Shown here one piece after another: positions 7,992 through 60,815 of a DNA stretch of 64,000 nucleotides. The notes under the pieces were generated by a model. The model saw nothing but the letters and a program-made list of their open reading frames with translations. It ran no database searches and was not told the DNA's origin. The DNA comes from an uncultured Cytophagales bacterium (GTDB taxonomy: Bacteria > Bacteroidota > Bacteroidia > Cytophagales > Flammeovirgaceae): assembly GCA_963729615.1 (NCBI GenBank), contig CAVSOI010000012.1, positions 457,236-521,235 on the forward strand. Direction: 5' to 3'. Positions within the stretch are counted from its first letter, which is position 1, and each line of letters begins with the position of its first letter. Both the position numbers and the translations under genes were made by a program.

Positions 7992-8130
7992 GGAACGGAA
8001 ATTAAATAAATGCGTGTTTTGTCGCAGATTATTTTTGAGGCTAGTCTAGGCAAAAAACACAGTCATAGCAACGCTATGACGAGTATTTATAATGAAGTAC
8101 AGCGTGTCCCGGACCAAAAAGAAGCAAGAG
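7992..8130 (+). repeat. Repeat family A (MITE-like), copy 1
   Basis: Shares ends GGAACGGAAATTAAATAAATG...TTTATTTTTGAGG and ...GACAGCGTGTCCCGGACCAAAAAGAAGCAAG with the copies at 15040, 22060, 24835 and 48594. Confidence 0.8.
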
Positions 8131-8172
8131 AATTTTAATAAGTTATTTTTTACTTGTTCCTTATCACAACAG

Positions 8173-9510
8173 CTATAAGAAATTTGGCCTTTTTACATCT
8201 TTTGGTAGCTTGCCAAACTTCTTTAGCTCCTCATACATGTATATTATCACCTTGTTTAAATGTTGCATAGCACCTGAAACCTGGTGGTCTCCGAGTTTAT
8301 TTATCTTATAAAGAGATTCGATATGCAAAAAAGCTTTGTGGAACTCTTTTTTGGCCATAGCCAGCTGGGATAACATTATTTGTAAAGAGAAGAACTCGGA
8401 GATATGGAATTCTATTCTATCAGGATAAAATTGCTTGAGTGAACTTTTGCCATCCAGTACACTTTCAGCCTCTTCTAATTTTCTTTTTTTCAACAAAAGC
8501 GATACCAGCGATGTGTATCCAAATAAGTAGTCAGGAAATTTCTCGACAGTAAGTTTGGCATATTTCATGGCCATTGCTTCATCTCTATTTCTTTCGTAAG
8601 CAACAGTTATGAAATTATAAAACGGTTTGTAATTAGGAAATTTTTTAAGCTCTTTTTTAATCCTGCTTATGGCAACATGGGGAATCCCATACAAACATAA
8701 ATGGTGCAACTCTTCAAAATCTGGGTGAACAAAATTGTCTTTGCCAGTGCTAATGGGTTCATCTGTGATTTTATACTGCTCATAATCAGATGGACTTAGG
8801 TTTTCCAGAGTAGGAATCTCCACCCGTTCTATGTTATCAAGGTAGGCCTGATAGATTTTAAGTTCGTTGTTGCTTAGTATTTCCTCTAAACTTTTGCTGA
8901 TGAAATCATCATCGGTATTAGCCATATAATCTGAAAAATAATAGACCCTGAAATTTCCTTCGCCCAATGTTTTCTTCATGGTGGCTATTTCTTTGCTCCC
9001 ATTTTCATTTTCATCTAGAATCAAGGTATGAATTCCGTTATCCCCTACGGGTATATCTTCATACTCAATCTCATCTTCGTCATCTATCAGGTGCTTTACC
9101 AGCGCAAAATCTTTGTGAGGCGCAAACCCAGCCTCTGCGGCCCAATCCAAGGCTTCGTAAATCATATTATATGCCGTATTGGCACTTATCTCTGTAAGCG
9201 GAAAAGGGTTAAAATCATACAACTCCTCAAACTCATGAAGAGGCATGTTGAATTTATAAAAAGTATCTTTTATGCCTAAGCAGTAAAAATCTATGAGAAA
9301 AATGGCTACTGTGATGTTTCCTGAAGTGTGTTGCCTAGCAATGTAGATGCTCGCTTTTCCTATTTCTTCCCAATCCGAGGTGATAGCACATCTATAGATA
9401 GGCAATTTCTTGCCCATTCCGGACCTGATGTATGCCTGAGGAGATTTAGGTGTATTTTTATGAGCCGATGATTTGATTGATTTTTTCTTGAGTTTTTTCA
9501 TAAGTGCCAA
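8173..9510 (-). CDS. Hypothetical protein, TPR-like C-terminal half
   Basis: 445-aa ORF with no recognisable catalytic motif. Coding-like composition. Confidence 0.5.
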   Translation of the reverse strand: MALMKKLKKKSIKSSAHKNTPKSPQAYIRSGMGKKLPIYRCAITSDWEEIGKASIYIARQHTSGNITVAIFLIDFYCLGIKDTFYKFNMPLHEFEELYDFNPFPLTEISANTAYNMIYEALDWAAEAGFAPHKDFALVKHLIDDEDEIEYEDIPVGDNGIHTLILDENENGSKEIATMKKTLGEGNFRVYYFSDYMANTDDDFISKSLEEILSNNELKIYQAYLDNIERVEIPTLENLSPSDYEQYKITDEPISTGKDNFVHPDFEELHHLCLYGIPHVAISRIKKELKKFPNYKPFYNFITVAYERNRDEAMAMKYAKLTVEKFPDYLFGYTSLVSLLLKKRKLEEAESVLDGKSSLKQFYPDRIEFHISEFFSLQIMLSQLAMAKKEFHKAFLHIESLYKINKLGDHQVSGAMQHLNKVIIYMYEELKKFGKLPKDVKRPNFL

Positions 9511-9741
9511 GGACTATTGTACGAATTGTGAACTGATACGATTTAAAACAATTGGCTATCAGGTTTGAGTTTGCCAAGAAGCCATAAAATTAAGCAATTC
9601 ACTTAATTGCCACAATATAAAATGGTATTTTCATCAAAAGCAGGATTCAAGAAACTCATGCGTGTTATTTTTGTTTAGGTTGTAAAGATTACATTTGGTT
9701 CCTTAGTTTTGTGATGCTGTAAATTAGAATTTCTTTTTAGA

Positions 9742-10629
9742 ATGCTTCAATCAATCCGTAAAAAACTCCAGTCGCCTTATCCCGCCAACTTTCATTGGAA
9801 GAACGGTTTAAGAATGGCGCTACTTTTCGGATTTTTCATTGCGTTTTTCCTCTGGTATTTCCGCCCCTATGATTTCAACAATCCCTCAAAAGTAGGTTTG
9901 ATTTCTTGCTGTTTCGGTCTGATTACGTTTTTCTGTGTTGTTTTCAACTCTATTCTTCTACCAAAATTGCTTCCGAAAATTTACGATGAAGAGAGTTGGA
10001 CAATTGGTAGGGAAATAACCGCAATTGTTTACAATACGGCTTTTGTCGGATTGTTCAACGGTTTCTTTGTGCTGTATCTGTCAGCCTTGCCTTCTGGGAA
10101 TTGGCTACAGATTTTGTGGGATTTACAGATAGCCACTTTTTCGGTCGGAGCATTGCCAATCATTGTCTCCACACTCTACAAACAGAATGTTTTGTTGCGG
10201 AGGAATTTGAAGAGGGCGAACTCCATCAGTAAGAAAATACAGAATTCACAATCAGAAAACAAGAGGTTGGATTCAGAAAAGGAAGTCGGAGAAATGATTT
10301 CCATACTAGCAGAAAATGGGAGTTTGGAGTTGGAGATAGCAAGCAGAAACCTGCAATTCGTAAAATCGGAAGGAAACTATTTGGAAGTGCATTTTTCGGG
10401 AAATGGAGAACCCAAAAGGCAAGTGGTTCGGAACACGCTGAAAAGCATGGAGGTTTTGGTATCCAACCAAAAGCAGTTTTTCCGTTGCCACAGAAGCTAT
10501 TTGGTAAATCTGGATTTGGTTTCCTCCATTTCGGGCAATGCCAGAGGTTATGAACTTTCCATCAAACAATCCAGCCAAATTGTGCCTGTCTCCAGAGGAA
10601 AAATTGAGGAGTTGAAGGAAAGGGTTTGA
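9742..10629 (+). CDS. Membrane-anchored LytTR-family DNA-binding protein
   Basis: Four N-terminal hydrophobic helices. The C-terminal LytTR signature is FRCHRSYLVNLDLV...IVPVSR. Confidence 0.7.
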   Translation: MLQSIRKKLQSPYPANFHWKNGLRMALLFGFFIAFFLWYFRPYDFNNPSKVGLISCCFGLITFFCVVFNSILLPKLLPKIYDEESWTIGREITAIVYNTAFVGLFNGFFVLYLSALPSGNWLQILWDLQIATFSVGALPIIVSTLYKQNVLLRRNLKRANSISKKIQNSQSENKRLDSEKEVGEMISILAENGSLELEIASRNLQFVKSEGNYLEVHFSGNGEPKRQVVRNTLKSMEVLVSNQKQFFRCHRSYLVNLDLVSSISGNARGYELSIKQSSQIVPVSRGKIEELKERV

Positions 10630-10753
10630 AAAAGAAAACGGGCTTCGTTTGTTTCCAAACGGGATTCTGGAACATCTTTTTCTTAGACTTCCAACAAAAG
10701 TCTTATTTTTGGAGAACTTATTAAAAACCGAATCATCATAAAACTGAAAAACA

Positions 10754-11836: not shown

Positions 11837-11849
11837 GGAAGTAATGTAA

Positions 11850-13582: not shown

Positions 13583-13937
13583 AGACAATACGATAACTTA
13601 TTAACTCAAATCACGAATTCGCTGATTTCCACTTGCTTTCTCACCTCTTGACCACTACTTTAGTAACATTTGTAGATAAAATAGTTGCAATCGTATTTGA
13701 TAAAACTAATTTGGTAGTGATAAACTGGTAAGGCTAACAAAATAAAAACCATAGCGCAAGCGTCCGCTTGTGACGAGTTATCCATAGAGTAACCTTACCT
13801 CTTTCACACTACCGCTCATTTATCTGCTCACTCCACAAAAGCTAAGCACTTTGTGCTATTTACTAGCGAGGGTCGCACCCTTTTATAATTTCCTATAAGT
13901 GAGATTGTTAAGAGCTCAAAACAGGAAAGTATTCAAG

Positions 13938-14602: not shown

Positions 14603-14756
14603 ATAGATGATTGATTGATTAGATAATTTGCTGATGCGATGATTTTAAAGAAACGAAATTCTAATTCAGAGAATTTTTGATTGACAAGATGGCGAATCGA
14701 AGTCTCCTAACTTCAATTTCTGTATTTTCAAGTTCTTTACCTTTATAAGTAACAAC

Positions 14757-15010
14757 CTAAATAATGGGTTTAAAAATTTGATTATCAGCAGGTTAACTGT
14801 GTTTTTTTTAGTATAGTCAAAAATTAAGATTTAATGTATTGCACTATTTTTAGATTTAATTAAAAACTGTATGTCAATATTTTGACTAAATAAAACAATA
14901 TTAAGTTGCTGATTAGCAATTACTTAATTCATTTTTAATTTTTAATTCTTAATTCTTAATTTCCCCAATCAATAATTGTACTTATCAAATATATAACTCA
15001 TAATTGGGGT
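14757..15010 (+). repeat. Repeat family B (AT-rich, ~270-bp MITE-like), copy 1
   Basis: Starts AACCTAAATAATGGGTTTAAAAAT and ends ACTCATAATTGGGGT, with an internal (TTAATTC)n microsatellite. Near-identical copies lie at 15381, 25226, 43391 and 52033 (reverse). Confidence 0.85.
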
Positions 15011-15039
15011 TAACAGTAAAATAATAACCTGCACATCTC

Positions 15040-15205
15040 TCTTGTTTCTTTTTGGTCCGGAACACGCTGTCTATTCTTCGTTAAAAATCTCGCCATAGTG
15101 TCGGACTGGCGTTCCGGTGCTATGACTGCGATTTTTGCTCGGGGCACGTTGCCTAGACTAGCCTCAAAAATAAACTGCGATAGATGCACACTTTATTTTT
15201 TCGTT
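15040..15205 (-). repeat. Repeat family A, copy 2 (reverse)
   Basis: ctcttgtttctttttggtccggaacacgctgtc ... gcctagactagcctcaaaaataaactgcga is the reverse complement of the copy-1 ends. Confidence 0.8.
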
Positions 15206-15380
15206 GTTACTAAGAGTATGTTTGGATTGACTTTTTGGGAATTTTACGAGATTTTCAGAACAGGCTTTCTAGGCATTTTTGAGATGTATAGTCAAAGCTA
15301 TGTGGGGAGAAAATAACGAAGAAAGCATTTTTGAAAAGGCGTAGAAACCAAAATCAAGTCGATTCAAACATACTCTAAGT

Positions 15381-15653
15381 TACCTAAATAATGGGTTTAA
15401 AAATCTGATTACCAGCAGATCAACTGTATTTTTTTTAAGTATAGTCAAAAATTAAGATTTAATGTATTGCACTATTTTTAGACTTAATTAAAAACTGTAT
15501 GTCAATATTTTGACTAAATAAAATAATACTAAGTTGTTGATTAACAATTACTTAATTCATTTTTAATTCTTCATTCTTAATGGCCAGGCCACCCTGTCTT
15601 CATTTCCCCAATCAATAATTGTACTTATCAAATACATAACTCATAATTGGGGT
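15381..15653 (+). repeat. Repeat family B, copy 2
   Basis: Near-identical to 14757-15010. Carries an extra GGCCAGGCCACCCTGTCTT insert. Confidence 0.85.
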
Positions 15654-15806: not shown

Positions 15807-17037
15807 ATGAAAAAGAGATTTTGCCATTTTTGCGGTGCTGGAGAAAAAGAAGTTGAATTTTTAATTGCGGGCGTTCATGCCGATATCTGCAATGGTTGCG
15901 TTGACCAAGCGCATGCCATTATGGCAAAAGAGCGTGGGGAAGACCAAAAACCATTGCCTGCTTTGAGCCTGAAGAGTCCGATTGTGATTAAACAGCATTT
16001 GGACGAATATATTATTGGACAGACAAAAGCCAAAAAAGTGCTTTCCGTAGCGGTTTACAATCATTACAAACGTCTGATGCAGAAAGTGAAAGACGATGTG
16101 GTGGTGGAAAAATCCAATATTGTGATGGTTGGCGAAACGGGAACTGGAAAAACTTTATTGGCAAAAACACTCGCCAAAGTCCTCCAAGTTCCATTTTGCA
16201 TTGCTGATGCCACCGTAATTACTGAAGCAGGTTATGTGGGCGAAGATGTGGAAACCATCTTGACCAGATTGCTCCAAGCGGCAGATTACAATGTGGCTGC
16301 AGCCGAAAGAGGAATTGTTTACGTGGATGAAATGGACAAAATTGCTCGGAAATCTGACAATCCATCCATTACGAGAGATGTGAGTGGCGAAGGTGTGCAA
16401 CAGGCAATGCTGAAACTCTTGGAAGGAACGATTGTAAATGTGCCACCACAAGGCGGAAGGAAACATCCTGAGCAGAAAATGGTGGCAATCAACACCGAAA
16501 ATATCTTATTTATTTGCGGTGGAGCTTTTGATGGAATCTCCAGAATCATAGCAAAACGACTAAACACCAAGCCATTAGGTTTTGTGAACGATAAAAACCA
16601 AGGCGTTGAGTTGAACGAAGAAAACTTGTTGCAATACGTAACTTCCCAAGACTTGAAATCATTTGGGTTGATTCCCGAACTCATCGGACGTTTGCCAGTT
16701 GTGGCTCATCTGAATCCGCTCGATAGAGAAGCATTGAGGGAGATTCTGACGAGACCAAAAAATGCGCTTGTCAAACAATATCAACGCCTCTTCGAAATGG
16801 AAGGAATTGAGTTGAACTTTACCGAATCTGCACTTCCAATATATTGTAGATAAAGCAATTGAGTTCAAGTTGGGAGCGAGAGGTTTGCGTTCTATCTGCG
16901 AATCAATTATGCTCGAAACAATGTTCGATATCTCAATCCAAAAAGCTGAGGGCGTGAAGGAAATCATTGTAGATGAAAACTTCGCCCATCGCCATTTCGA
17001 GCTTTCTGGCGAAGCATTTAGGTTAAAGGCAGCGTAA
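15807..17037 (+). CDS. clpX: ATP-dependent Clp protease ATP-binding subunit ClpX, with an apparent 1-bp insertion near 16836-16840 splitting the frame
   Basis: N-terminal C4 zinc finger CHFCG...CNGCV and Walker [13 protein letters not shown]. The ORF ends ...ESALPIYCR*, but the +1 frame continues [22 protein letters not shown]..., the conserved ClpX C-terminus. Reading ccaatatattg as ccaataattg restores [12 protein letters not shown]. Confidence 0.85.
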
Positions 17038-17332
17038 GAAAAGTCTGAAGTCTTTAGTAATAAGTCTTTAGTACAAAGTCAGAAGATAGGATTATTAAAA
17101 TTGCTTACGTAGAGTCTATAAATAGAAGAAAAAAATAGCTGCTTTCAAAAAATACCAACCAGAACTGAGAACTCAATGCACTAGTGCATTAAAATTGACC
17201 GAATTACCTACGTTTGTTGGATTCTAAAAACAATGCTTCAAATAATTCTGTTTGAAATCATATACTTTTTTCAAAAATCACAAATTCCAACTTTGGACTT
17301 AAGACATTGGACTTTGTACTAAACATAAAATT

Positions 17333-17668: not shown

Positions 17669-17783
17669 GATAAATGTACGAATTTGGATGTACGATGTAC
17701 GATTTGCATTAGGTATTTAATCTGAATTCATATTGTACATTTGAGCATATAGAAAAACAACCTTTTGTCATCCAAGATTTGTC

Positions 17784-18296
17784 ATGGAAATAGAACTTAT
17801 TAAAGGAGACATTACCAAAATAAAAGCAGATGTAATTGTCAATGCGGCAAATACATCTTTGCTAGGTGGCGGTGGAGTAGATGGAGCAATTCACAGAGCG
17901 GGAGGAAAACAGATTTTAGAAGAATGCGTTGCAATCAGAAATAAGCAAGGAGGTTGCAAAGTGGGAGAAGCTGTAATTACCAATGCAGGAAATCTCAATG
18001 CGAAAAAGGTAATTCATACGGTCGGCCCAAATTGGAATGACGGAAAATCCATGGAAGAGGAGAAACTAAAAAACTGTTATTCAAATGTTTTAAGGTTAGC
18101 AGAAGAAAATAACCTTTCAGTAATTGCCATTCCCAATATAAGCACAGGAATTTACAGGTTTCCTAAAAAGCTTGCGTCAAAAATCGCTATTTCTGCTGTA
18201 AAAGGGCATCAAAGTACAAGTGTCTCAAAAGTGATTTTTGTCTGTTTTGATGAAGAAAACTTTCAACTATACAAACAAAAGATAGAAACAAGCTAA
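17784..18296 (+). CDS. Macro-domain protein (O-acetyl-ADP-ribose deacetylase-like)
   Basis: [36 protein letters not shown] is the macro-domain signature. Confidence 0.8.
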
Positions 18297-18397
18297 TTTA
18301 TAGTTAACTAAGTTAGAGAATGCAAGTAACAAAAGCTACTTGCATTTTTGCTTTTCCGAAAACAACTCATTCTTAATTTTTAATTCTTCATTCTCAA

Positions 18398-22059: not shown

Positions 22060-22322
22060 GGAACGGGAATTAAATAAGGTGCTATTTTATTGCAGTTTAT
22101 TTTTGAGGTCGGGTCGGGCCACGTTGGCCACGCTGGCTAGTTTAGCCGTTCCCGGCCGGGACAAAAATTGTAGCCGTAGTGGAACTAGCATAGCACTAGA
22201 ACGCCAGTCCGATGGAACGCCAGTCCGATGGAACGTCAGTCCGATGGAACGCCAGTCCGACACTATGGCGAAATTTTTAACGACAAATAGACAGCGTGTC
22301 CCAGACCAAAAATAAGCAATAG
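22060..22322 (+). repeat. Repeat family A, copy 3 (longest), with an internal 16-nt tandem (GAACGCCAGTCCGATG) x about 4 at 22199-22261
   Basis: Same termini as copy 1. The internal tandem copy number differs between copies: 1 at 15100, 2 at 24900, 4 here. Confidence 0.85.
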
Positions 22323-22507
22323 AAAATGTGCATTTATTTATTTTCCGTTCCTAAAATAGTATTCTGGATTTTTAGGCAGATTGTGATTGAATTTGCTCAG
22401 AATAAGTACAAAATAGAAAGTCGGATGGTTGATGTCATAGCAAATTACGCATTGAAAATCAGCACCTTATAAAACATAAGTAGTTACGATAATTTTGTTT
22501 GATTACT

Positions 22508-22515
22508 TAGCTTTG
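22508..22515 (+). promoter_or_regulatory. Candidate -7 element TAGCTTTG upstream of the GH3 gene
   Basis: Matches the TAnnTTTG consensus about 27 nt upstream of the ATG at 22542. Confidence 0.25.
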
Positions 22516-24701: not shown

Positions 24702-24834
24702 ATTTAGACGAGAGCCCAAATAACCCAACAGCTAATCAGGGCAACCTCCTCAAAAAAAGGATTCTATCTCGGATTTTATAAAAAAAATAGCCGTTGTTGG
24801 TCTTAGGCATATTAAAGAAATAAACTAAACATTT

Positions 24835-25045
24835 CTCTTGTTTCTTTTTGGTCCGGGGCACGCTGTCTATTCTTCCAGTTCCACTGCGGGTGTAAAAATA
24901 TTAGCCATAGTGTCGGACTGGCGTTCCATCGGACTGGCGACCCAGTGCTATGCCTAATATTTTTGTCCCGGCTGGGAACAGCTAAACTAGCTAGCGTAGC
25001 CCGACCTCAAAAATAAATCGCAATAAATGTCCATTTTATTTCTTT
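24835..25045 (-). repeat. Repeat family A, copy 4 (reverse)
   Basis: ctcttgtttctttttggtccggggcacgctgtc ... cgacctcaaaaataaatcgcaataaatg. Confidence 0.8.
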
Positions 25046-25225
25046 GATATGCCTTAGCAATAGATATCGCAAGTTTTGGTTTAGCTTGATAAATTTTAGT
25101 ATAAAAAGAACGTGCAAAAATAAATAAATTGCGAGACCAACAACTAATTGTCATTGAATAATGATTCAATTAGATTTCAACGGATAAAAAGTGCTTAAAT
25201 TAGATGTGGTTGCCCCCTAACAGCT

Positions 25226-25496
25226 AACCTGAATAATGGGTTTAAAAATCTGATTATCAGCAGGTTAACTGTATTTTTTTAAGTATAGTCAAAAATTAAG
25301 ATTTAATGTATTGCACTATTTTTAGACTTAATTAAAAACTGTATGTCAATATTTTTACTAAATAAAGCAATACTAAGCTGTTGATTAACAGTTACTTAAT
25401 TCATTTTTAATTCTTCATTCTTCATTCTTCATTCTTAATTCTTCATTTCCCCAATCAATAATTGTACTTATCAAATACATAACTCATAATTGGGGT
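25226..25496 (+). repeat. Repeat family B, copy 3, with an expanded (TTCATTC)n tract
   Basis: Same termini. The internal ttcattcttcattcttcattcttaattcttcatt tract is longer than in the other copies. Confidence 0.85.
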
Positions 25497-25498
25497 AG

Positions 25499-26464
25499 CT
25501 AATAATACTTCCCATCCACCAAATAGCTTTTCACATAATCCTCCACGCCATTTTCCAAGGAACGAAATTCTTTGTCGTAGCCGATTTTGCGTAGTTTGCT
25601 CATGTTGGCTTCTGTGAAATATTGGTATTTATCTCGAATATCTTCGGGAGTGTCAATGAAAGGAAATACTTTCAGGCTTGCCCATAGCTTTGAAAGTGGC
25701 ACGAGTCAAATCTAGGAAAGTGCGAGCATTTCCAGTTCCTAAATTATAAATTCCCGAATTTTTTCGATGATTCATCAAAAAGAAAATCACTTCCACCACA
25801 TCTTTCACATATATAAAATCCCGCTTTTGCTCTCCATCTTTGAATTCAGGATTATGAGAGCGGAATAGTTTCATCGCTTCCGTTTTGCCAATTTGATTGA
25901 ACGCATGGAAAATTACGGAAGCCATTCTGCTTTTGTGATATTCATTCGGACCATAAACGTTGAAAAATTTCAATCCGATCCAGAAAAAAGGCTTTTCTTC
26001 TTGTTCCAAAGCCCATTTGTCAAAAATGTTCTTCGATTCTCCGTAAGGGTTTAGCGGTTGGAGTTTGGAAATTGTTTCCTCGGAATCGTCATAGCCAAAT
26101 TCGCCCAAACCGTAAGTGGCTGCTGAAGACGCATAAATCAAAGGAATATGATAGGCGCAACAGGCTTTCCAAATCTGCTTGGAGTAATCCACATTGAGTT
26201 CCTCCAAAAGTTCCCAATCAAATTCGGCAGTATCTGTTCTCGCTCCAATGTGGAAAATGAATTCCACCTCCTTATTGTTTCGCTCCAACCAAGTGAAAAA
26301 CATTTTTCTATCTACAAACTCTTGTATTTTCTTTCCTTCGAGGTTTTTCTGCTTTTGCTCGTTCCGAAATCATCTACGGCAACAATATAATTGAAACCGC
26401 TTTGGTTGAGCCTGCTGATAAGGCAACTGCCAATGAAGCCAGCTGCACCCGTAACTATCATCAT
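25499..26464 (-). CDS. hldD: ADP-L-glycero-D-manno-heptose 6-epimerase (HldD/RfaD), interrupted by two apparent 1-bp indels (about 25690 and about 26350)
   Basis: N-terminus MMIVTGAAGFIGS, central ASSAATYG motif and C-terminus IPFIDTPEDIRDKYQYFTEANMSKLRKIGYD lie in three different frames. At 25690 a T-run (agtatttcc) breaks KPESI/PFIDTPED. Confidence 0.8.
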
Positions 26465-27858: not shown

Positions 27859-28103
27859 AAATATATGTATTCAGTATACGTAAGTAGTCAGGCGAAATTA
27901 TTGCAACATCTTATCTTTTTTAAGATGCTGATTATCAATACGTGATTTACTATGGCATCGGTCATCCGACTTTCTATTAGAGTTTATGAATAGAAGAAAT
28001 AAATTCCCTCGGAGTGGTAAGGTTCTATAATAAATTAGTGTTCATAATCTCTATTTCGTACTTGACTTAGTCAGTCTTTTTTATTATCTCAACCCTCCTT
28101 TCT

Positions 28104-28904: not shown

Positions 28905-29519
28905 TATTGTACTTTTCTGATTCTACCAATAGCAAACTCCAACCAAACAGGTTTTGTGAGTTAAAGCTAGGAAATATTCGCAACAATTTCTGTATTTGAG
29001 AAGGAAAGCCGATAAATCCAATCCTAAAAAAAGTAGGAAAAATAAAAGTTGATTACTCTAAGTTGCTGATAATCAGCAATAATTTGTTTGTTCATAACTT
29101 TAATAGCCCAACGTTCTATATCGAATTTCGGTATAATTGTATATACGAAACGGCAAAACAAGCCCCGCAAAACACTAACAAACTTCTACCCAAACTTATA
29201 AAACTATGACTGTCTTAATCGCACTGATTATTATTCTTAGCCTTTCGCTCCTCAAATTATTAGCTACAATCCATAAAATGGATTCGGTTACGGAAATCAC
29301 ACATCAAACCAATGAATCAGAACAATTCAAAAATTTCCACGCTTGTGGAGATTTGAATTTGAGACAATAGCTTTTCCAATCACACACGCAACAGACCGAA
29401 GTCGTAAATCTGGGGTCTAAAGCAATTATCAATCAACGAAATACTTACTAACAACTCATTTCAAACTCCCCAGTCAGGATTTCACACTTCCCGACTGGGA
29501 ATTATCAAAATCCAAAACC

Positions 29520-29765
29520 ATGAAATTCGCAAACGAATATATTAAGGTAGGCATCATCGGAATTGCCATTAACTCGGCAATAAATGTATTTGTCTATTTG
29601 GCAAAAGGTGTTGAGTTTGGAGATTTCTTCCCGTGCTATCTTATTTGGATTTGTTTTCTGCTGATTGGTTTGGCAGAGAAATTTGGGGGAATGAGCGTTT
29701 TGACGGAAAACCAAGCTTTATCATTAAATCAAATTACCGTTCCACACAAACAAATTAAATCGTAA
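29520..29765 (+). CDS. Small hydrophobic protein (hypothetical)
   Basis: 81 aa with two hydrophobic helices. Sits upstream of the nfeD-like gene. Confidence 0.3.
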   Translation: MKFANEYIKVGIIGIAINSAINVFVYLAKGVEFGDFFPCYLIWICFLLIGLAEKFGGMSVLTENQALSLNQITVPHKQIKS

Positions 29766-29799
29766 TTCGTACCTCTAAAATCGTAACTATTCCCTATTA

Positions 29800-33092: not shown

Positions 33093-33130
33093 AAAACAGT
33101 AGTGAGTAATGAGTAGTTGGTATTGAGATT

Positions 33131-33172
33131 AACAAGAAAAGGCAAAGCTGAAGTGCTTTGCCTTTTCTTGTT
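33131..33172 (+). terminator. Strong hairpin downstream of the flotillin gene
   Basis: aacaagaaaaggcaaagc-tgaagt-gctttgccttttcttgtt: 18-bp perfect stem with the T-rich 3' arm. Confidence 0.6.
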
Positions 33173-33355
33173 ATATACACGAAGTGAAATGGTTTTGAGA
33201 TTTATCTTGATTTAAATTCAATTGCCAATTGCTTTAGCCCGCAATGGAATTGAGTGGTTTTTGAGAAATAAGAATCCCAAAATCAACTTCATCTGAATAT
33301 AGAAATGAAAGTTAAGGAACTTTCAACAGACACAATTGAGGTTCAGAAACCTCGA

Positions 33356-33535
33356 CTAGTGCATCAAATCCTAAGTTCGTGTTGCTATTTTTGTTTCTTA
33401 TTTCCTTCTACTGCATTAAAATTCTTAGCCGTAGCTATGGCTATGTCGGAATGTCGAACCACTTAAATTTTGCTTTGCAGAAGAAAATAATATTCCAAAA
33501 AATTACAGACACTAACTTAGAACTCAATGCACTAG
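33356..33535 (+). repeat. Repeat family C, copy 2; its terminal CTAG supplies the stop codon of speE on the opposite strand
   Basis: ctagtgcatcaaatcctaagttcg ... cttagaactcaatgcactag. The gene stop (reverse complement of 33532-33534) lies inside the terminal inverted repeat. Confidence 0.8.
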
Positions 33536-34708
33536 CATTTTTCTTTCCTACAATAAGCCAACATCCACGAACCTGTTGGGAAACTTGGCAAATGGATTTC
33601 CTTGGTTTGCACATTCAACTTTCCAAATACACTCTCCAGAATACTTTTACGATTGGCTACTTCATCTTTCTCCATCCAAACTGAACCGAGCGGAATGGTG
33701 GCAATTCCGTTTGGAGCTAGTTTTTCACGAATCAAATTTGCCAACGCTAAAGTCATTTCACTTTTCTCAATTTGAGTAGAGTCAATGGAATCCAAAATGA
33801 TTAAGTCAATGGAATTCGATTCCAAATTTCTAAGTAATTCGTAGCCATTTTCGTACTGAATATCAACCTTCGAGTTGCTCAATCCAACCGAAACTTTTGG
33901 AAAAAACTGTATGGAGATTTCTACTACTTTCGAGTCAATTTCAGCAAGAATAATCTGCTCGACCGAATCAAATTTCAATAATTCTCGCACAGTTCCGCCA
34001 TCTCCACCGCCAATTACCAAAGCAGTTTTTACAGTCGGATTTTGCTCTAAGGGCGGGAATTACCAAGTTCTCATGCAGAATATGTTCATCGGCATCGGTT
34101 ACGGCAATCGTGCCATCCAACACGAGCATTCTGCCAAAAGTCTTGGTTTCCAAAACCTGAATTTTCTGAAACTCGCTTTCTCCATCGAACAGCAAATTGC
34201 CTTCGTGCTTTACGGAGAGGGCAATTTCCCCCGCTCGTTCGGTAAACCAAAGCTCTCTAGAGATTTTTCGCCTATGTTTTTTGATGGTTTCAGATTCAGC
34301 AAAGTGTGCTGGTTGGATTTTATTTATTTCAGTTGATGAGTTGGCTTCCAACATCTGAGTTTGCCCACGCTTCATTTCGATTGCGGAAATGTGAGAGGCT
34401 TTGAGAGCAGTTTTTAGATATTCAAGTGCTTCCCAAGGGTTCACGGTTTCCCCGCAAGTGAAAATATCTACTGAGGCAAATCCATATTCTGGCCAAGTAT
34501 GAATTGCCAAATGGCTTTCTTGAATGACCACCACGCCAGAAACCCCAATTGGCGCAAAATGATGGAAAGTGGAGTTCAGAACCGTAGCATTTGCTTTCTG
34601 GGCAGAATCCACCATGGCATTCTCCAAAAAAGTTACTTCATTCAGCAACTTTTCTGAGCATCCGTAGATTTCCGCCAGAACATGTCTGCCCAAAGATTGA
34701 TTTTCCAT
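33532..34708 (-). CDS. speE: Fused S-adenosylmethionine decarboxylase (SpeH-like) / spermidine synthase (SpeE), split by an apparent 1-bp insertion in a C-run about 34035-34045
   Basis: N-terminal ...[16 protein letters not shown] (AdoMetDC) then ...WFTE...[20 protein letters not shown]...HENLVIPA. The other frame continues [25 protein letters not shown]...DSID (the spermidine synthase motifs). Confidence 0.75.
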
Positions 34709-34779
34709 AGTTATTAAAATAGAAAACCACGACTCATTCAGAATGAATCGTGGTTTTTGAATCTCTTAAATATAAGTTT

Positions 34780-35378
34780 CTAGAAGAAGAAACCTGCTTC
34801 AATCGCAAAGAAATGGAGTTTCAAATCTACTGCATCAGCATCTGATACATCAGTAAGTCCTCTATTGTAAGAAAGCCCTAAAGTAACCGTGCCAAAATCG
34901 AATTCTTTTTCTCCTGCCACTCCAAATTTCATAGTGCTCCCAATAGAATTATAGGCATCTTTCGCATCCACATTATCGTCATTTGTTTTGCTTCTGGCAG
35001 AAACATATAAATCTAGCGTGGGTCCAACAAAGCCACTTATGAATAATCCATCGCTGATTTCGTTGGTACGCAAAGAAACTCCGATAGGAATTTCGACAGC
35101 AGAAAGAACTCCTTTTCCACCATCATCTTTGTCGCCAAAGGCTTTCGTAGTAAGTGCAATCCCAGTTTGGATTCCGTAATTCTCGCTGAACCCTTGTCTA
35201 GAGGTTTATGGCAATTCGAGTGCCGACTCCGTTTTCTCCATCTGACTTTCTGCCACCAACCTCGCCAACAGCAGAATTGAAAGTAGGACCGAAACTAACA
35301 CCTACTCTTGTACCTTCTTGTGCAAAAAGTTCTTGTCCGAAAGTGAAAAACAAGGCAACTAATAGTAATTTTTTCATC
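34780..35378 (-). CDS. Small outer-membrane beta-barrel protein (OmpW/OMP_b-brl-like), split by an indel about 35195-35205
   Basis: Signal peptide MKKLLLVALFFTFGQELFAQ in one frame. The other frame gives ...SENYGIQTGIALTTKAFG... and ends LHFFAIEAGFFF, a terminal aromatic typical of OM barrels. Confidence 0.55.
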
Positions 35379-35553
35379 TTAGATTTCTTTAGTAATTATA
35401 ATGTACAAATTTTTAACTCAACAATTATCTTAAATTAGGTTCTGCAAACTTATAGCTATCAAACCTATTTCTTAACGAAAGGTTGCATAATTTGCAATTT
35501 AGACATGAAAAAAGGGAGCAAGCTGCTCCCTTAAATTCTTTTTAAGCTAAGTT

Positions 35554-38501: not shown

Positions 38502-38533
38502 TCGAAATCAAAAAAACTCGCCATTTCAGGCGA
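38502..38533. terminator. Bidirectional intrinsic terminator below the ABC gene
   Basis: aaaaaaactcgcc-atttca-ggcgagttttttt: perfect stem flanked by an A-run on one side and a T-run on the other. Confidence 0.7.
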
Positions 38534-38573
38534 GTTTTTTTGATTTCTCATTATCAAGTGTAATGTATGCTGT

Positions 38574-42953: not shown

Positions 42954-43390
42954 AGATAGTGAGCTTTTTGGCTTTAATCGAATTTGTGTAATGAATGCTA
43001 TTTACTAAGCAAATGAAGCAATTTTGAGACTACTCCACAACAGAAGCAATAGTTGATTACTCTAAAATTTCGTGTTAAGATATGATATTTTTGAAATAGT
43101 AGCAATTTGAATAACAATTTTATTCAAATTTATAGTATTTGTAACTTACTGAGCGATTTCCAAAACAAGAATGTTTGCGCTATTATCTCATTTTGCGCAA
43201 TACGAAAACAGTTTTGGTTGGATTTCATATTGCCCATTGATGAGAAGAAATCAGCATTATAGAAAACCCCAAGATGAATAATGAGAGTCAACCCAGACCA
43301 TTGCATGCCGCCAATTTTGGGGAATTGCTTCCCAATGAATTCCTTTCGCAATAAATCCAACCATTTTAAATATTGGCCCAAATTCTATTT

Positions 43391-43661
43391 AACCCGAATA
43401 ATGAGTTTAAAAAATTGATTATCAGTAGGTTAACTATAATTTTTTTAGTGTGGTCAAAAATTAAGATTTAATATATTGCACTATTTTTTGATTTAATTAA
43501 AAACCGTATGTCAATAGTTTGGCTAAATAAAATAACATAATTTACTGATTAACAATTACTTAAGTCATTTTTAATTCTTCATTCTTAATGGCCAGGCCAC
43601 CCTGTCTTAATTTCCCCAATCAATAATTGTACTTATCAAATACACAACTCATAATTGGGGT
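43391..43661 (+). repeat. Repeat family B, copy 4
   Basis: aacccgaataatgagtttaaaaaattg ... ctcataattggggt. Contains the GGCCAGGCCACCCTGTCTT insert. Confidence 0.85.
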
Positions 43662-48345: not shown

Positions 48346-48593
48346 ACAAATTACTGTTCACAATCTCCAACCGTATTCTTCACAAAAAATTAAATTCCTA
48401 TTTAGGTATATGACGATTTTGAAGTTTACAAAATGAATTTGCTTCCCTCCAAAGTTAGAGTATGTTTGAATCGACTTAATTTTTGGTTTCTACGGCTTTT
48501 CAAAAATACCTGCTTCGTTGTTTTCTCCCCGAATAGCTTTGTGTTTTGAAAATCTCGTAAGATTCCCAAAAAATCAATCCAAATATACTCTTA

Positions 48594-48764
48594 GGAATGA
48601 GGATTAAATAAATGCGTGTTTTGTCTCAGTTTATTTTTGAGGTCGGGTCGAGCCAGATTGGCTACGCTAGCTAGTCAAGGCAAAATTTGCAGTCATAGCA
48701 CCGCTATGCGAGATTTTTAACGAAGAATAGACAGCGTGTCCCGAACCAAAAAGAAACAAGGGGC
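48594..48764 (+). repeat. Repeat family A, copy 5
   Basis: ggaatgaggattaaataaatgcgtgttttgtctcagtttatttttgaggtcgggtcgagcc ... gacagcgtgtcccgaaccaaaaagaaacaagg. Confidence 0.8.
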
Positions 48765-48805
48765 AGTCCCACTGAGAAAACAGCATCTTATTTATTTTCC
48801 ATTCC

Positions 48806-50497: not shown

Positions 50498-51335
50498 TTA
50501 TTATTCAGGTTGAGAGAAAGCAAAAATGGAAATTTCCACAATTCTTGCTTGAGATTTTGTGGATTATTCACACATTGCCCACAATCTACAATTATATATA
50601 TATTTTCCGAACAAATGAAACATTGTCGTTTGAAAATTGAGAATTAGGAAATAAGACTTAAAGTACTGATAGTCATATATTTACCTAAAAAATCGGGTAG
50701 TATGTAAGATGTAAGGCTACTTTTGGATATTTCGATACAAGCGAACGCTTGCGCTATGATTTTCTATTTGTTAGCCTTACCATTTTATCACTACCAAAAA
50801 GTGATTCAGTTGTCAATTTAGGGAAAACATTGTGTTATTCTAATAAACCTTCGGCTGTTTGTTTTGCAAGCTAGGAAGCTTTGACTAGCGAATGGAATAC
50901 ATAATAGTTCTTTGTTGAACCAGTAAGGAATTAACTAAGTAGTGTTCGCTAAATATTTTCCTATTATAAGGACATCAAGTGTGTAACCCTATTCTTGGTT
51001 ATCAAAGGCACAAGCGGACGCTTGCGCTATAGTTTTTTGTTGTTTTTGACGCTACTTACTTGCCACCATTCAAAATAGGAAATTATTTAAGTACACCTAC
51101 TTAATAATAGAATACTGACAAGTAATAAAAAACACAAATTGGACTCAATTCTTAGGAATATGTTTGAATCGACTTATTTTTGGATAATATTTTGAATTGT
51201 AAACATTACATCGCTTTGAGAGACTTTTTTTTTAGGATTGCCATCAGCATAATTCTGAAAGATACGTTATGTATAATCCGTATTGAGAGTATTATACTTT
51301 TCTGTTCTGCTATTTTCTAACTTTACTATCTGGCC

Positions 51336-51662: not shown

Positions 51663-52032
51663 GGTTGGATTTAGTTATTCATAGCTTATGGCTCACGCAG
51701 AACCTGCCGATATTTGCCAAAATAGCACATTTGCGAGTCTGAAAACAGACACAGTCAAACGCATTTTATCTTAATTTTGCGTGGACTTTATCCTTATCAA
51801 AATTAAAAAATATTATATTCAAATGGCAAATTACATATCATAGCTTAGATTTGGTACTTTTGCAGAATCATTAAAGAAAAGTGATAGCAGTTGGATTTCA
51901 AATTCCCTAGTTTTTGAAAAGTTCTGGACTCTACTGTCTCCAACCAAAAAGCAAGTTTGAGAAAGAATAAGTACAAGTACAAAATAGAAAGTTGGATGGC
52001 CGATGCCATATTAAAATAGAAAGTTGAATATT

Positions 52033-52301
52033 ACCCCAATTATGCGTTATGTATTTGATAAGTACAATTATGGATTGAGGAAATTAAAACAGGGTGGCCT
52101 GGCCATTAAAAATGAAGAATTAAGAATGATTTAAGTATTTGGTAATCAGTATTTTGATTTTATGAGTTCCGTTAAATTATTGTCATATAATTTTTGATTA
52201 AATCTAAAAAAAGTACAATATAGCAAATCTTAATTTTTGACTACTCTAAAATAACACGGTTAAATATCTGAAAAACAAAGTTTTAAACTCATTATTCGGG
52301 T
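52033..52301 (-). repeat. Repeat family B, copy 5 (reverse orientation)
   Basis: accccaattatgcgttatgtatttgataagtacaattat ... aaactcattattcgggt is the reverse complement of the family B ends. Confidence 0.85.
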
Positions 52302-52446
52302 ATATTGATAATCAAGATGTCATGCTAAATATAATTACAAGCTAATTCCGTCCACTTACTTACGAGGAAGGTTTTATTTGATAGTAAGTAATAGTTGTTA
52401 AAATACTGAAAATCAATATTTTAAATGCACTTACAGAGAAATAAAC

Positions 52447-52637
52447 ATACTACTGGACATTTCCATAAATCAAGACCTCTACAGAGGTGTCGATGGCGAC
52501 AGCATCGGCTGTCCGATTCCAAAAAACCCTGCCGAAGGGCGATTTAATCCGAACCACGATGGCCGTTCAATGTCTGGCCGGGCCACGCTGGCGAGACCTG
52601 CGGATTCCGCCAGCGATTCACTCATGTCCAGTAGTAT
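52447..52637. repeat. Repeat family D element bounded by 14-bp TIRs (ATACTACTGGACAT / ATGTCCAGTAGTAT)
   Basis: The TIRs were read directly. The interior is GC-rich: gtcgatggcgacagcatcggctgtccg...gccgggccacgctggcgagacctgcgg. Confidence 0.7.
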
Positions 52638-52831
52638 GAGAAATAAATAATATCAATTAAATAGTTCTTGGTAAGTGCTTAGACTGAATTAATCAATACT
52701 TATATTTCACATAACTAATTGATTTTGAGATTTTAACTTGCCATTTTACTATCTTTCTATTTTGAACTTACTTATTCTGATTATCAACTAATAAAAAAAA
52801 GAATTGGCAAGTTTTGCCTAATTATAATTAG

Positions 52832-54058: not shown

Positions 54059-54311
54059 TAAAATGGCAAGATAGAAAAGTTATAGAACAGCAACATTGCG
54101 ATAAGTATTCTGACTAATTCTACTTTAGGACTCTTAAAAGTATAATTCCATTCTCCATTAGCTGAAGCTAGTGGAGAATGGAATCAAAACTATAGATGTC
54201 GAGTTTGCCATTCAATTGCATCCATTTGAAGATGGATGTTTGTTTTCGCAACTTCAATAGCTTATATAAAGTAAGTTGAGGAACGGTTAACTTAATTCAA
54301 AATGAATTGAT

Positions 54312-57036: not shown

Positions 57037-57481
57037 TTTCTTAGATGTTTGAGGTAAAGGACTATAAATATTTTTATAAAATTTCTTTTTTGATTCTCGA
57101 CCGTATTTCCCAATTGCCGAGCATGATTACAGTAAGCCAAAAAGAATACCCCAAAACACCATATTGATTTATTTAACTGATAATCAGTATTTTACATAAA
57201 ATATCTACTATGCCAAAAAACAAAAAAGCCTTCGGATTCCGAAAGAGGTTTCGGTATCCGAAGGCTAGCGCATCAACTCCTAAGTTTCTACTGTTATACA
57301 AGCTTCAGTCAGCGTGACCCAATCAAAGACTGATTTCCATTGTTCGGCACAGGTTGGCGATTGCGCCCCCAGAAAAAACCTGCGCCAGCGTTTTACGCTG
57401 GTTCGAGCGTCCACGCTCGAACCAAATTCACACTAACTTAATGGCATTGAGCGGACGCTTGCGCTATGGGTAGTTACCCAA

Positions 57482-57560
57482 ATTAATGATTGAACTATTT
57501 TTAATTCTTAATCTCTCAATCTACAATTGTATTTATCAAACATATAACTCATAATTGGGA
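57482..57560 (+). repeat. Repeat family B, 3'-terminal fragment
   Basis: ...tttttaattcttaatctctcaatctacaattgtatttatcaaacatataactcataattggga. Confidence 0.6.
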
Positions 57561-57575
57561 TTGATACTAACAAAT

Positions 57576-58043: not shown

Positions 58044-58266
58044 GGTAAAGGAGGGTTTTTTCTGTATTTAATGGGAACGCTGTGTTTCAAAAGTAAAATT
58101 CTGAGTTTTGGTTTTCACTTTCTTTGGTTCTTTTCAAAGTTATCAAGAATGTGTGCAAATTTTCAAAAGTGGGCGAAAATAGAAGAATCTGGGTGTATGA
58201 CAAATTCGCATAAAACTTCAGAAATGCCTTATATTAAGTTGTAGAGATTAAAATTGCCATACAATA

Positions 58267-59676
58267 TTGATAATCAATATCATATGGCAAATATATTTTG
58301 CAAAAGCCTTATATTTGTTTCGATTAAAAAAACATTTACTCGGTTTTCGTAAAATACACTGCAATGATAAAAAAAACTTTAGGCAAAAGATAGTTTCCCT
58401 GACGAAGAAATACCTGGAAAACGACTATTTCGATATTTCCAAACAGCTAGATTCAGTATTTTCGGCATCTGATATTTCAAAGTTCGAGGAGTCCGACCTG
58501 GATTTTTTCGAGAAAATGAATGCTCTGCTGTTCCTGGGTCAATTGGTGGGACTGCCCACGCTGAAAAGTATTCTGACCAAGTTCGGCATTGCCAGCAACA
58601 GGTTGCAGAAAAACTACACGAAGCTATACAAGAAGCTGACTGTAAGCAAGTTGCGTATTATTTTCGAGTTCATATTTGAACAGCAGGCAGTCGGCATTTT
58701 GAGGGAAATGGCTCTGAAAGACTCTTCCATCTGGTCGAAAAAAAGAGTGACTGCCGTTCTGGATGACAGTATTTTCCGCCAATGGCTTTCTGGGTCGGCA
58801 AGGGACGGGGCGCATTATGGCAAGTTCTTCAGCGGGCAATACCACTGCTCGGTCTTCGGCTTCAAAGTAGTGTGTTTTGGACTCTATATTGACGGTATTT
58901 TCTACCCCCTGTTTTTTGATTTCGTCAAGAAGAAAACAGGGGAGCAGGGCAATCAGGCGATTGAGGTGGCAAAAAAGCTGGTCTCCCGCTGGGGCAGGCT
59001 CAAGGGCAGACTTGCCAGGGAAGGCGTCATGTTGCCGAACATCCATTTCAGCTGCGACAATGGATACAATGACGTCTCGCTGAGCGGGCATTGCGAGAGG
59101 CAGGAAAATGGGCTGGTCTATATCAGCGTGCCGAGGAGAAACAATATTTTTACCATCGATGAAAAAAGAGGGAGCCTGACTGAATTCATCGATTCGGAAT
59201 TTATGACGGAGGAACTGGCACATCGGCAGAACGAGAGACACTTGAAAGAAGAGAGTAAAACGCCCTTCTGCCTACGGAAAAAGGCGTTTTACCACAGCCA
59301 GCAAAGGTATGTGACCCTGCTGTTTTTCAGGCTGAATGGCTCGGGGAGGGTAAGCGTCATCTATTCGCCAAGCGAAACGATCTTTGCAAAGACGCTGCGC
59401 AGGCATTGGTTCAGCCGAACCTACATAGAGCAGTTTTTCAAGACCCTCAAGCATGTGCTGAGAATTACCGAGGCCAGAACGAAAGACAGGCACGAGCTGG
59501 AATTCAAGATTCTGCGATTCGCCTTCATGGCTGTGGAGGCACAAAGGATAGTCAAGTTCCTGAGAAGGAAATTCAGTGCATTCAAAGGAAAAGGTTTCAT
59601 CGCCCTGCAGAGAATACTCTGTTTTGAACAGGAAATAATAGACCTTTTGCAAAGCAAAACACATGTAAAATACTGA
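58267..59676 (+). mobile_element. IS4/IS5-superfamily DDE transposase gene in a locally GC-rich island; element ends not resolved
   Basis: Motifs LDDSIF...DNGYND...RRHWFSRTYIEQFFKTLKH (the Y-R-W-IE-FK pattern of IS4-family transposases). The 58.8-59.5 kb stretch is visibly GC-richer than its flanks. A 17-nt palindrome ATATTGATAATCAATAT lies at the 5' edge. Confidence 0.65.
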
Positions 59677-60017
59677 AAATCAAACCCTTATAAAGGAGTT
59701 AAACTCTACAAATTAAGGCAAAGAAAACGGCTATGACTCTGAGAAAAGAAGATTTTTTAGCACTAATTGGTTGTTGGTCTCGCAGTAAATATTTTTATGT
59801 ACGTTTTTTTTGATTTATTATTCTTGCTCTAAATATAATGCTGAAGGATTTTATTGCTAATTCTACCATGCTACATGATAATTTTTCTCAATAGCTTAAA
59901 TTTCAGCCTTTCTACCTCCCCTAACCCCTCCAAAAGGAGGGGATTTAGCTCCTTCCCCTTTTAGGGCAGGGGTGGGGTAAAATATTGGCTCTCAAAAATT
60001 GTCATGTAGTATGTAAT

Positions 60018-60395
60018 TCTACTCGACATTTCCCACCCTTTTTTTTAGAGAAATTGTATTTTTTAGATACAATTTTATTGGCGGATTGAGAACTCGGCAG
60101 TGTGCTGTCGATGGCGACCCCCGTTTGCACCTGCCGAAGGTCGGACCCGAAGGTCGGGACCCGATGTTCGGGAATTGTTGAAAAGCTTTTGGGTTCGTTG
60201 TTTTCTCGCTTACTAGACTGGCGGGAGCGAAAATGCACACCGCCAGCTAGTCGCTTTGCGAAATGAGTTTCAGTAGTTCAGGATATTCGGAAAAAGCACT
60301 TAGTATTTGAATAGTTATGTTTTTTAGCAATTAAGTGTAATTACACAATAAATACCAAAAGTCAATTTTAAGGGTGGGAAATGTCGGTTCTACTT
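60018..60395. repeat. Composite MITE-like element with ~23-bp TIRs (TCTACTCGACATTTCCCACCCTT / AAGGGTGGGAAATGTCGGTTCTA) enclosing a family-D GC-rich core
   Basis: TIRs read directly. Interior gtgctgtcgatggcgacccccgtttgcacctgccgaaggtcggacccgaaggtcgggacccg... Confidence 0.65.
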
Positions 60396-60437
60396 TAAGA
60401 CTCTGAAAATACAGAACTCGTTTACCACTAGCTGAAG

Positions 60438-60633
60438 CTAGTGCATCAACTCCTAAGTTCGCATTCGTATTTTATGTTTCTTGTTTCCTTCTACTGCATT
60501 AAAATTCTTAGCCGTAGCTATGGCTATGTCGAAATGTCGAACCATCGGATTGCCGAACCATTCAGATTTTGCTTTGTAGAAGAAAACAATATTCCAAAAA
60601 ATACTGAAAGGAACTTAGAATTCAATGCACTAG
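60438..60633 (+). repeat. Repeat family C, copy 3
   Basis: ctagtgcatcaactcctaagttcg ... cttagaattcaatgcactag. Confidence 0.8.
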
Positions 60634-60754
60634 TGGCAATTGAATCAGCACTCAGAAAGCTTATTCATTGCATCCACCTTCAGATAGATATTTAGAATAA
60701 CAACCCAAAAATGACACTTGAAATGCGATTCCGGCTAGAGTCTTAAAGTAGAAC

Positions 60755-60815
60755 TAAACTAGCCTCAAAAATAAACTGAGGCAAAACACACATTTATTTA
60801 ATTCCCATTCCTTAG
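60755..60815 (-). repeat. Repeat family A, terminal fragment (reverse)
   Basis: gcctcaaaaataaactgaggcaaaacacacatttatttaattcccattcc is the reverse complement of the family A 5' end. Confidence 0.6.

Follow-up and report, generated by a model that had tools for sequence, protein, structure and literature searches.

A stretch of 64,000 nucleotides from the genome of an uncultured Cytophagales bacterium (assembly GCA_963729615.1, contig CAVSOI010000012.1; the whole stretch is referred to here as the window) harbours a swarm of non-autonomous DNA transposons of the type known as MITEs (miniature transposable elements with inverted repeats). This reading, to which we give a probability of about 0.9, embraces at least 12 families, designated A to L, and the target-site duplications (TSDs) that accompany them (TA; TWA, that is TAA or TTA; 5 bp; and 8-9 bp) imply at least four mechanistic classes, as judged by the stagger of the insertion cut. 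MITEs are an ordinary kind of element, and the mode of transposition is ordinary too; what is unusual here is the density and the diversity, and the families are new, in an under-studied, marine-type lineage of the Bacteroidota. The observations taken directly from the sequences are terminal inverted repeats (TIRs), TSDs, nesting of one element in another, multi-copy status, occurrence of the same families in related genomes, absence of any coding or Rfam signal, and a match between the ends of family C and those of an IS630 element. TIRs are present in families A, B, C, D, E, G, H, I and K, and none was resolved for F and L; the elements, at 100-370 bp, lie within the size usual for MITEs (under ~600 bp, with no transposase gene). 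Taken together, the TIRs, TSDs and nesting identify the repeats as mobile elements. A first-pass annotation of the window had already described MITE-like repeats, an interpretation now supported by the TIRs, by TSDs that are specific to each family and by the non-coding nature of the elements. It had recognised at least four unrelated families; they are indeed unrelated, in the sense that their TSDs imply at least four classes of transposase, but the count of four must be raised to at least 12.

A repeat finder, combined with comparison of the window against itself by blastn, defined 26 repeated intervals totalling 4.2 kb, with two to six copies per family and pairwise E-values from 1e-14 to 1e-105. 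Both orientations are represented, as had been reported, and only about 23 bases of the repeat copies lie inside genes. The blastn comparison also reproduced the earlier tallies for family A (five full copies and one fragment), family B (five copies and one fragment) and family C (three copies and one fragment), but not the estimate that copies are more than 90% identical: copies within the window share 75-91% identity in B, 82-91% in C and 69-86% in A. Intergenic gaps contain 14 TIR-bounded pairs, where shuffling of the sequence leaves about 1.4. When genes are called conservatively, the coding density of the window is about 72%, and the non-coding share 28% (18.0 kb). MITE-like DNA accounts for 5.66 kb, equivalent to 8.8% of the window and 31% of its non-coding DNA, and of the 32 gaps that measure 150 bp or more, 15 contain some of it; these values are lower bounds, but they do not sustain the earlier description of repeats filling nearly all intergenic DNA. 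Inclusion of the single resident insertion sequence (IS) brings the total to 11.2% of the window. Some 30 elements in 64 kb correspond to about 470 per Mb. A 21-kb locus of a related ENA assembly (L023), which lies elsewhere in the genome than the window, gave comparable values: MITE-like DNA makes up about 8% of it and coding sequence about 71%. The window also has long gaps with no detectable repeat or gene, for example at 28905-29799, 34709-35553 and 5261-5886.

Comparison of insertion sites, which the first-pass annotation had proposed as a check, revealed perfect TSDs for family B in six of six cases and for family H in three of three, and TAA/TAA or TTA/TTA flanks at seven of the eight copies of families A and E. 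The duplications of family B are all 5 bp in length and all different from one another, in the five window copies and in the copy at L023 (CTTTA). The TIR of this family is 16 nt long (ACCYRAATAATGRGTT / ACCCCAATTATGAGTT), and its terminal motif was encountered 11 times where 0.15 occurrences were expected by chance. Internally, the copies of family B contain a 7-nt unit repeated 3.3 to 6.9 times. The duplications suggest a partner enzyme making 5-bp staggered cuts.

The flanking TAA or TTA was observed at A2, A3, A4, A5, E1, E2 and a family A copy at another locus (L021), the exception being A1, which is flanked by CAA and TTA. The family A end is represented by GGAAYGG..AATTAAATAAATG and the family E end is GAGTATGTTTG; a 16-nt unit is present about four, two, one or zero times per copy of family A. 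Both termini of each A copy carry a matching variant, which may be GGAACGG, GTAACA, GGCATAT, GGAATG or GTGAAAG. When the termini of the window copies were compared together with those of L012 3484-3656 and L021 2273-2430, within-copy matches over the first 12 columns numbered 64, against 48.2 +/- 3.4 (standard deviation) for mismatched pairings, and none of 1,854 derangements reached this value; the matching of the arms fades past about 30 nt. The simplest reading of the matched termini is that family A comprises discrete subfamilies whose ends have co-evolved. At both loci where E stands beside A (15211-15378 and 48455-48593) the two have the same relative orientation, and the A copies at these loci differ from each other more than the E copies do, which suggests either a site preference or joint movement of the pair. 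The partner enzyme of A and E is, from the flanks and ends, possibly of the IS5 family or Harbinger-like. The missing half of the family A fragment was sought to the left of the nest formed by G, H, I and C, where no similarity exceeded that of shuffled controls.

For family C a candidate partner type has come to light, an addition to the first-pass annotation, which had named no mobilising enzyme. The tetranucleotide CTAG precedes 33 of 33 C-type ends examined (the search pattern itself contained CTAG for most loci), and the sequence beyond it is variable and unrelated, a context that fits an arrangement of C-TA/element/TA-G. CTAG with a duplicated central TA is the classical target of IS630. 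A scan with the C TIR found a metagenome contig (L005) carrying a 1,348-bp element with CTAGTGCATTAAATTCTAAGTT at both sides, which encodes an HTH_23 open reading frame (ORF) and a DDE_3 ORF. The DDE ORF scores 106.3 bits on the NCBIfam IS630 model NF033545 (cut-off 100), and the TIRs of the element are 85-89% identical to C ends over 37-41 nt. At another locus (L022) a C copy abuts an IS630-like element beginning CTAGTGCATC. Because its ends match those of an element with an IS630-family transposase, family C is, on this sequence evidence, an IS630-type MITE.

Family C also appears to be dispersed rather than local. When an ORF derived from C was used to search protein records, six more copies, all distinct, emerged on five large contigs, of 618,830 (two copies), 289,619, 657,880, 867,460 and 393,614 bp, which come from the same sources as the ClpX record of the window and apparently from the same assembly. 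These copies, and those of most families in independent related assemblies, speak against the possibility, raised in the first-pass annotation, that the families are peculiar to this region. The deposited C-derived proteins read the family in differing frames and, given that there is also no Pfam match, the ORFs on MITEs are by-products. The ORFs flagged earlier as spurious (15098-15316, 22079-22315, 33379-33684, 60441-60695 and the N-terminal extension at 7964-8053) do all lie on MITE copies and have no Pfam match.

The GC-rich repeats that had been grouped as a single family D proved to be a composite of D, H, I and J, which have different ends and TSD lengths. A family D copy in a locus of a metagenome-assembled genome (MAG; L012) has a perfect 9-bp TSD, whereas the TSDs of D1 and D2 in the window have decayed (six of eight positions matching). 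Family H has the end CATRCTAC, and its 9-bp duplication in L023 is GTTTTAAAT. For D, H and I the partner enzyme would be one that makes 8-9-bp cuts. Despite their different ends, D, K and J have in common a GC-rich hairpin motif, ATAGCGCAAGCGTCCGC (13760-13790, 51009-51044 and 57445-57465; L023 3453-3753), into which a J-type element is inserted in L023. Several elements are nested, and the nesting gives the relative order of insertions: B1 lies in the terminus of A2, where TAACA has been duplicated; C3 lies in G; H2 and I are at the end of G; and G itself cuts a copy of A. A second copy of G abuts an A copy in L012.

The proposed course of events is the one generally envisaged for MITEs. Each element would be 100-370 bp of DNA retaining only the TIRs of some IS; a transposase encoded elsewhere in the genome would bind these TIRs and excise or copy the element, which would then insert at a staggered cut whose repair yields the flanking duplication. 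Elements would in this way build up in intergenic DNA and within each other, and ORFs crossing them would be by-products. Four classes may be distinguished. One, of IS630/Tc1-mariner type, would take in C and K, probably along with J and G, all inserting at TA, and in the case of C always within CTAG. Families A and E, with their 3-bp TAA or TTA duplication, would be products of enzymes of the IS5 family (IS1031/ISL2-like) or of Harbinger-like enzymes. Family B would make 5-bp duplications at varied sites, and D, H and I would constitute the class with 8-9-bp duplications. For A/E, B and D/H/I we infer the class of transposase from TSDs and ends, and mobilisation in trans inside this particular genome likewise appears probable rather than observed.

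Several points weigh against this account. CTAG is palindromic, so that duplication of TA is inseparable from the inverted repeat of C. The IS630 partner type of C is known from contigs of other samples (L005 and L022) and not from the host genome; for A, B, D, E, H and I no autonomous partner was found in the sequences searched, and their classes are deduced from how long the TSDs are and from the sequence of the ends. Decay or ambiguity affects some TSDs, namely those of A1 (CAA/TTA), of D1 and D2 (6/8) and of G, for which TA and TWA compete. Finally, since copies in the window are only 69-91% identical, many of them may be old and immobile.

The matched arms of each family A copy would also be explained if some families, A especially, were derived from MITEs but are now under selection as hairpin elements, acting as terminators, mRNA stabilisers or protein-binding sites. 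The excess of within-copy matches described above is in keeping with this, as is the folding of C1 as a full-length hairpin (z = -6.9). However, A1 folds no better than shuffled sequence (z = -0.7) and B2 only weakly better (z = -2.0), the matching of the A arms does not persist beyond about 30 nt, and by inspection of the gene layout copies occur alike in tandem, divergent and convergent gaps; moreover, matched termini are equally expected from subfamilies whose ends have co-evolved with a transposase. We consider selection as hairpins unlikely, and the uneven folding of C1, B2 and A1 fits DNA-level inverted repeats at varied stages of decay, rather than conserved RNA structures. Even less probable is the idea that the repeats are duplicated small-RNA genes with structured products, or leaders resembling riboswitches, and not mobile DNA at all. 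Their intergenic location and the local hairpins in some of the GC-rich cores might be cited in its favour, and the first-pass annotation had allowed for known structured RNAs, but the window has no match to Rfam (Rfam 15) at the gathering score of any family, and where the repeat-rich stretches were searched with relaxed settings the hits did not rise above chance (E >= 0.14). Such genes would also not account for the perfect, copy-specific direct duplications that flank copies, for the nested elements, or for the occurrence of both orientations relative to neighbouring genes.

Abundant short intergenic repeats bearing inverted repeats are likewise reminiscent of repetitive extragenic palindromes (REPs) and bacterial interspersed mosaic elements (BIMEs), spread by a REP-associated tyrosine transposase (RAYT) of the IS200/IS605-like tyrosine (HUH) type. 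REP/BIME sequences are palindromes of 20-40 bp whose head, GTAG/CGTC, is conserved; they lack a TSD and are accompanied by a RAYT gene, and HUH-type single-strand transposition, as in IS200/IS605, makes no target-site duplications. The elements of the window are instead 100-370 bp long and have family-specific TSDs, the scanned ORFs of the window included none resembling a RAYT, and family C matches an IS630 element of the DDE type, so that a REP/BIME origin has next to nothing to recommend it. We attach equally little weight to artefacts of assembly or segmental duplication. The assembly is admittedly not error-free, to judge from single-base frameshifts in conserved genes (ClpX), but the same families are present in independent JGI, ENA and GenBank assemblies, and the copies diverge from each other by 9-31% and are not alike in their flanks and TSDs.

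The host of the MITEs belongs, on the basis of its nearest named ClpX relatives (about 73% identical), to the Cytophagales of Flammeovirgaceae/Cyclobacteriaceae type. A cyanobacterial origin (Nostocales-type MITEs, HIP1) was considered and rejected, there being no GCGATCGC sites, and the ClpX homologues pointing to Cytophagales/Flammeovirgaceae. The gene content, with chemotaxis-type CheB/CheR and many sensors, does not resemble that expected of a reduced endosymbiont. When species-representative genomes were scanned for the C TIR, eight of the ten contigs among the matches listed belonged to one Flammeovirgaceae MAG, whose loci carry copies of C, A, D and J type; many of the matches lie at contig ends. 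L023 contains copies of B (94% identical), I (97.8%), K (97.6%) and H (92%), as well as F, a D element split by the J-type element, a piece of A, and the IS; elements that are single in the window are thereby seen to belong to families too. In a syntenic contig of 87% nucleotide identity (L001), the spacer between the MarR and ClpX genes lacks B1, A2, E1 and B2 and holds a family L copy; this spacer is too diverged to provide a clean empty site, but the comparison indicates turnover of elements between species. A more distant relative with IS630 copies (L024) has no MITE family in common with the window. Families B and C found no match among plasmids by blastn, a 26-nt family B pattern found none in 185,579 species-representative genomes or in viral contigs, and the C and A patterns found none in viral contigs. 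No earlier description of the families was found in Rfam, in plasmid and viral collections or in the searchable literature.

The RUP element of Streptococcus pneumoniae is a MITE derived from the IS630 family and attributed to IS630-Spn1. Family C shares with such IS630-derived MITEs, as K, J and G probably do, a short length, TIRs of about 20 nt and a probable insertion at TA, and the ends of C are shared with an element encoding a helix-turn-helix protein and a DDE_3 transposase. Unlike RUP-type MITEs, the window sequences are unrelated to described families and match nothing in Rfam, plasmids or phage contigs; the host is Cytophagales-like, the target of C is strictly CTAG rather than bare TA, and the partner is known only from a metagenome contig. 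Closer in host is MITECca01 of the Cardinium endosymbiont cOegib, an element of about 240 bp present in 169 copies that make up 3.5% of the chromosome, which is the one dominant family there and derives from a resident IS982-family element (PMC9769881). MITECca01 and the MITEs of the window are alike in having a Cytophagales host, in being mostly intergenic or inside other mobile elements, and in being very abundant; the window differs in having at least 12 families and at least four TSD classes in 64 kb, with no resident parent visible in it. BrickBuilt of Porphyromonas gingivalis is described as a Bacteroidota MITE containing a minisatellite whose unit number varies between copies; families A (16-nt unit) and B (7-nt unit) resemble it in their internal tandem repeats of varying number and differ from it in sequence, host order and ends (PMC4596501). 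A census of 183,232 genomes found prokaryotic MITEs to be mostly intergenic and enriched at lower coding density, with maxima of 468 MITEs per genome in Prochlorothrix and, in Wolbachia, of 123 per Mb and 1.23% of the genome (bioRxiv 10.1101/2024.01.18.576219). The values of about 470 per Mb and 8.8% in the window exceed these maxima, although the methods differ and the comparison is indicative only.

It is tempting to go further and suggest that no prokaryote seen so far has a MITE load as dense and as diverse as this Flammeovirgaceae-like lineage, in which MITEs would take up about 9% of the DNA at several hundred per Mb and represent at least a dozen families and at least four transposase classes, at about 72% coding, distributed genome-wide and not confined to one hotspot, and that the co-variation of family A ends reflects either co-evolving pairs of transposase and ends or a hairpin-based correction of the arms; this is a tentative proposal, which we regard as possible rather than probable. 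If the 8-9% of MITE bases and the coding density of about 72%, seen at two independent loci, were to hold genome-wide, this would be a bacterium other than an endosymbiont whose intergenic DNA is shaped mainly by non-autonomous transposons, and a useful system in which to study the coexistence, nesting and turnover of families of transposable elements. MITEs are a well-known class and the understanding of their transposition is unchanged; the value of these families is practical and comparative. They generate spurious ORFs that have already been deposited as proteins, and they probably break assemblies, many of the MAG copies being at contig ends; a catalogue of the families would clean the annotation of a poorly studied Cytophagales lineage.

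The sole autonomous IS of the window is delimited by a second copy in L023, which is 98.9% identical over exactly 58234-59716, with TTAA at both ends in both copies. It encodes a DDE transposase of 469 amino acids (maximal ORF; 58267-59676) that is distantly IS4/IS701-like, scoring far below every curated cut-off (best match IS4, 17 bits), and that has no relative in the PDB detectable by sequence. Bernardetia, Microscilla and Trichodesmium commonly have homologues of this transposase, for the most part on contigs about 1.5 kb long. From its sequence the IS looks like a member of an uncurated clade related to IS4/IS701. It was ruled out as the partner of the MITEs because its ends match those of no family in the window, in agreement with the first-pass annotation, which had found no obvious shared ends. 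The positions of all elements are collected in Table 1.

Table 1. Mobile elements in the 64-kb window. L-numbers denote loci in other assemblies.
Element	Position	Strand	Length (bp)	Ends and flanks	Remarks
A1	7992..8160	+	169	termini GGAACGG.../...CTTGTTCC	overlaps apparent N-terminal extension of FNT-transporter ORF
A2	14749..15210	-		TAA/TAA flanks	B1 inserted within terminus (G[TAACA]G)
A3	22060..22351	+	292	TSD TAA/TAA	16-nt minisatellite, 3.9 units, 22199-22260
A4	24806..25053	-	248	TSD TTA/TTA	variant GGCATAT at both termini
A5	48594..48805	+	212	TSD TTA/TTA; termini GGAATG	
A fragment	60758..60811	-			single arm; truncated by element G
B1	14755..15010	+	256	perfect TSD TAACA	nested in A2
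B2	15382..15653	+	272	TSD AAGTT	
B3	25227..25496	+	270	TSD AGCTA	internal 7-nt repeat expanded to 6.9 units
B4	43392..43661	+	270	TSD ATTTA	
B5	52033..52301	-	269	TSD AATAT	
B fragment	57497..57561	+			right end only
C1	13938..14132	+	195	~22-nt TIR CTAGTGCATYRANTYCTAAGTT	full-length hairpin (z = -6.9)
C2	33356..33535	-	180		
C3	60438..60633	-	196		nested within element G
C fragment	17123..17186	-			abuts second CTAGTGCAT... end at 17183; not in orthologous L001 spacer
D1	13713..13813	+	101	TIR GGTAGTG...; decayed 8-9-bp TSD	
D2	50696..50795	-	100		
E1	15214..15375	-	162	TIR GAGTATGTTTGRATYGACTT; TSD TAA	exactly at TWA flanking A2
E2	48458..48590	+	133	TSD TTA	exactly at TWA flanking A5
F, copy	22412..22509	+			partial copy at 51970-52018; another copy in L023
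F, copy	27881..27978	-			partner of copy at 22412-22509
G	60387..60754	+	368	perfect 18-nt TIR GTTCTACTTTAAGACTCT	length includes nested C3; interrupts A fragment
H1	52446..52638	+	193	TIR CATACTAC...; perfect 9-bp TSD AGAAATAAA	GC-rich core
H2	59867..60013	+	147	perfect 9-bp TSD TAATTCTAC	92%-identical copy in L023
I	60024..60386	+	363	perfect 17-nt TIR CGACATTTCCCACCCTT; 8-bp TSD, 7/8 matching	97.8%-identical copy in L023
J	57264..57470	+		C-like left end CTAGCGCATCAACTCCTAAGTT	GC-rich core; relatives in L019 and L023
K	50936..51103	+	168	TIR TAAGTAGKGT; TA flanks	97.6%-identical copy in L023
L	43201..43371	.			related copies in MarR-ClpX spacer of L001 and at a site in MAG locus L014
IS	58234..59716	+	1,483	TIR TTAAGTTGTAGAGATTAA; TTAA at both ends	sole autonomous IS in window

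Several genes of the window appear to be interrupted. That for ClpX (15807-17038) is broken in two by one additional base near 16834, and its halves are 91-94% identical to the intact ClpX of 409 amino acids in L001, which points to a very recent frameshift or an error of assembly. A speD/speE-type gene (33532-34708) is split into two overlapping ORFs, and an ADP-heptose epimerase ORF (25653-26303) covers only positions 55-268 of a 316-position model; both look like additional cases of frameshift or truncation. Genome decay, which the truncated ClpX, speE and heptose-epimerase ORFs might bring to mind, was considered and is not established, the ClpX defect being one extra base and possibly an assembly error. 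Between the genes for YbaB and an M16 peptidase there is a segment of about 650 bp (17669-18318) housing a macro-domain gene (17784-18296); the orthologous spacer in L001 measures only 63 bp, so that the two differ by a gene-sized insertion or deletion.

Among the smaller features are isolated self-complementary stretches of 38-44 bp that belong to no family, possibly terminators, at 3757-3794, 33130-33173, 38504-38547 and 54145-54184, and an intergenic, perfect tandem array of 5.6 copies of the 8-nt unit TCTATCCA at 3991-4035. The window also contains a two-gene candidate anti-phage system (11909-13410), whose ATPase matches the PADLOC profile PDC-M38A (E = 9e-80), and also AbiLi, and whose second gene, a match to PDC-M38B (DUF3226), seems short, with 149 amino acids against 220 for the profile. 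A putative endonuclease of the Uma2 family at 19777-20376 matches another PADLOC candidate, PDC-S03 (E = 6e-33).

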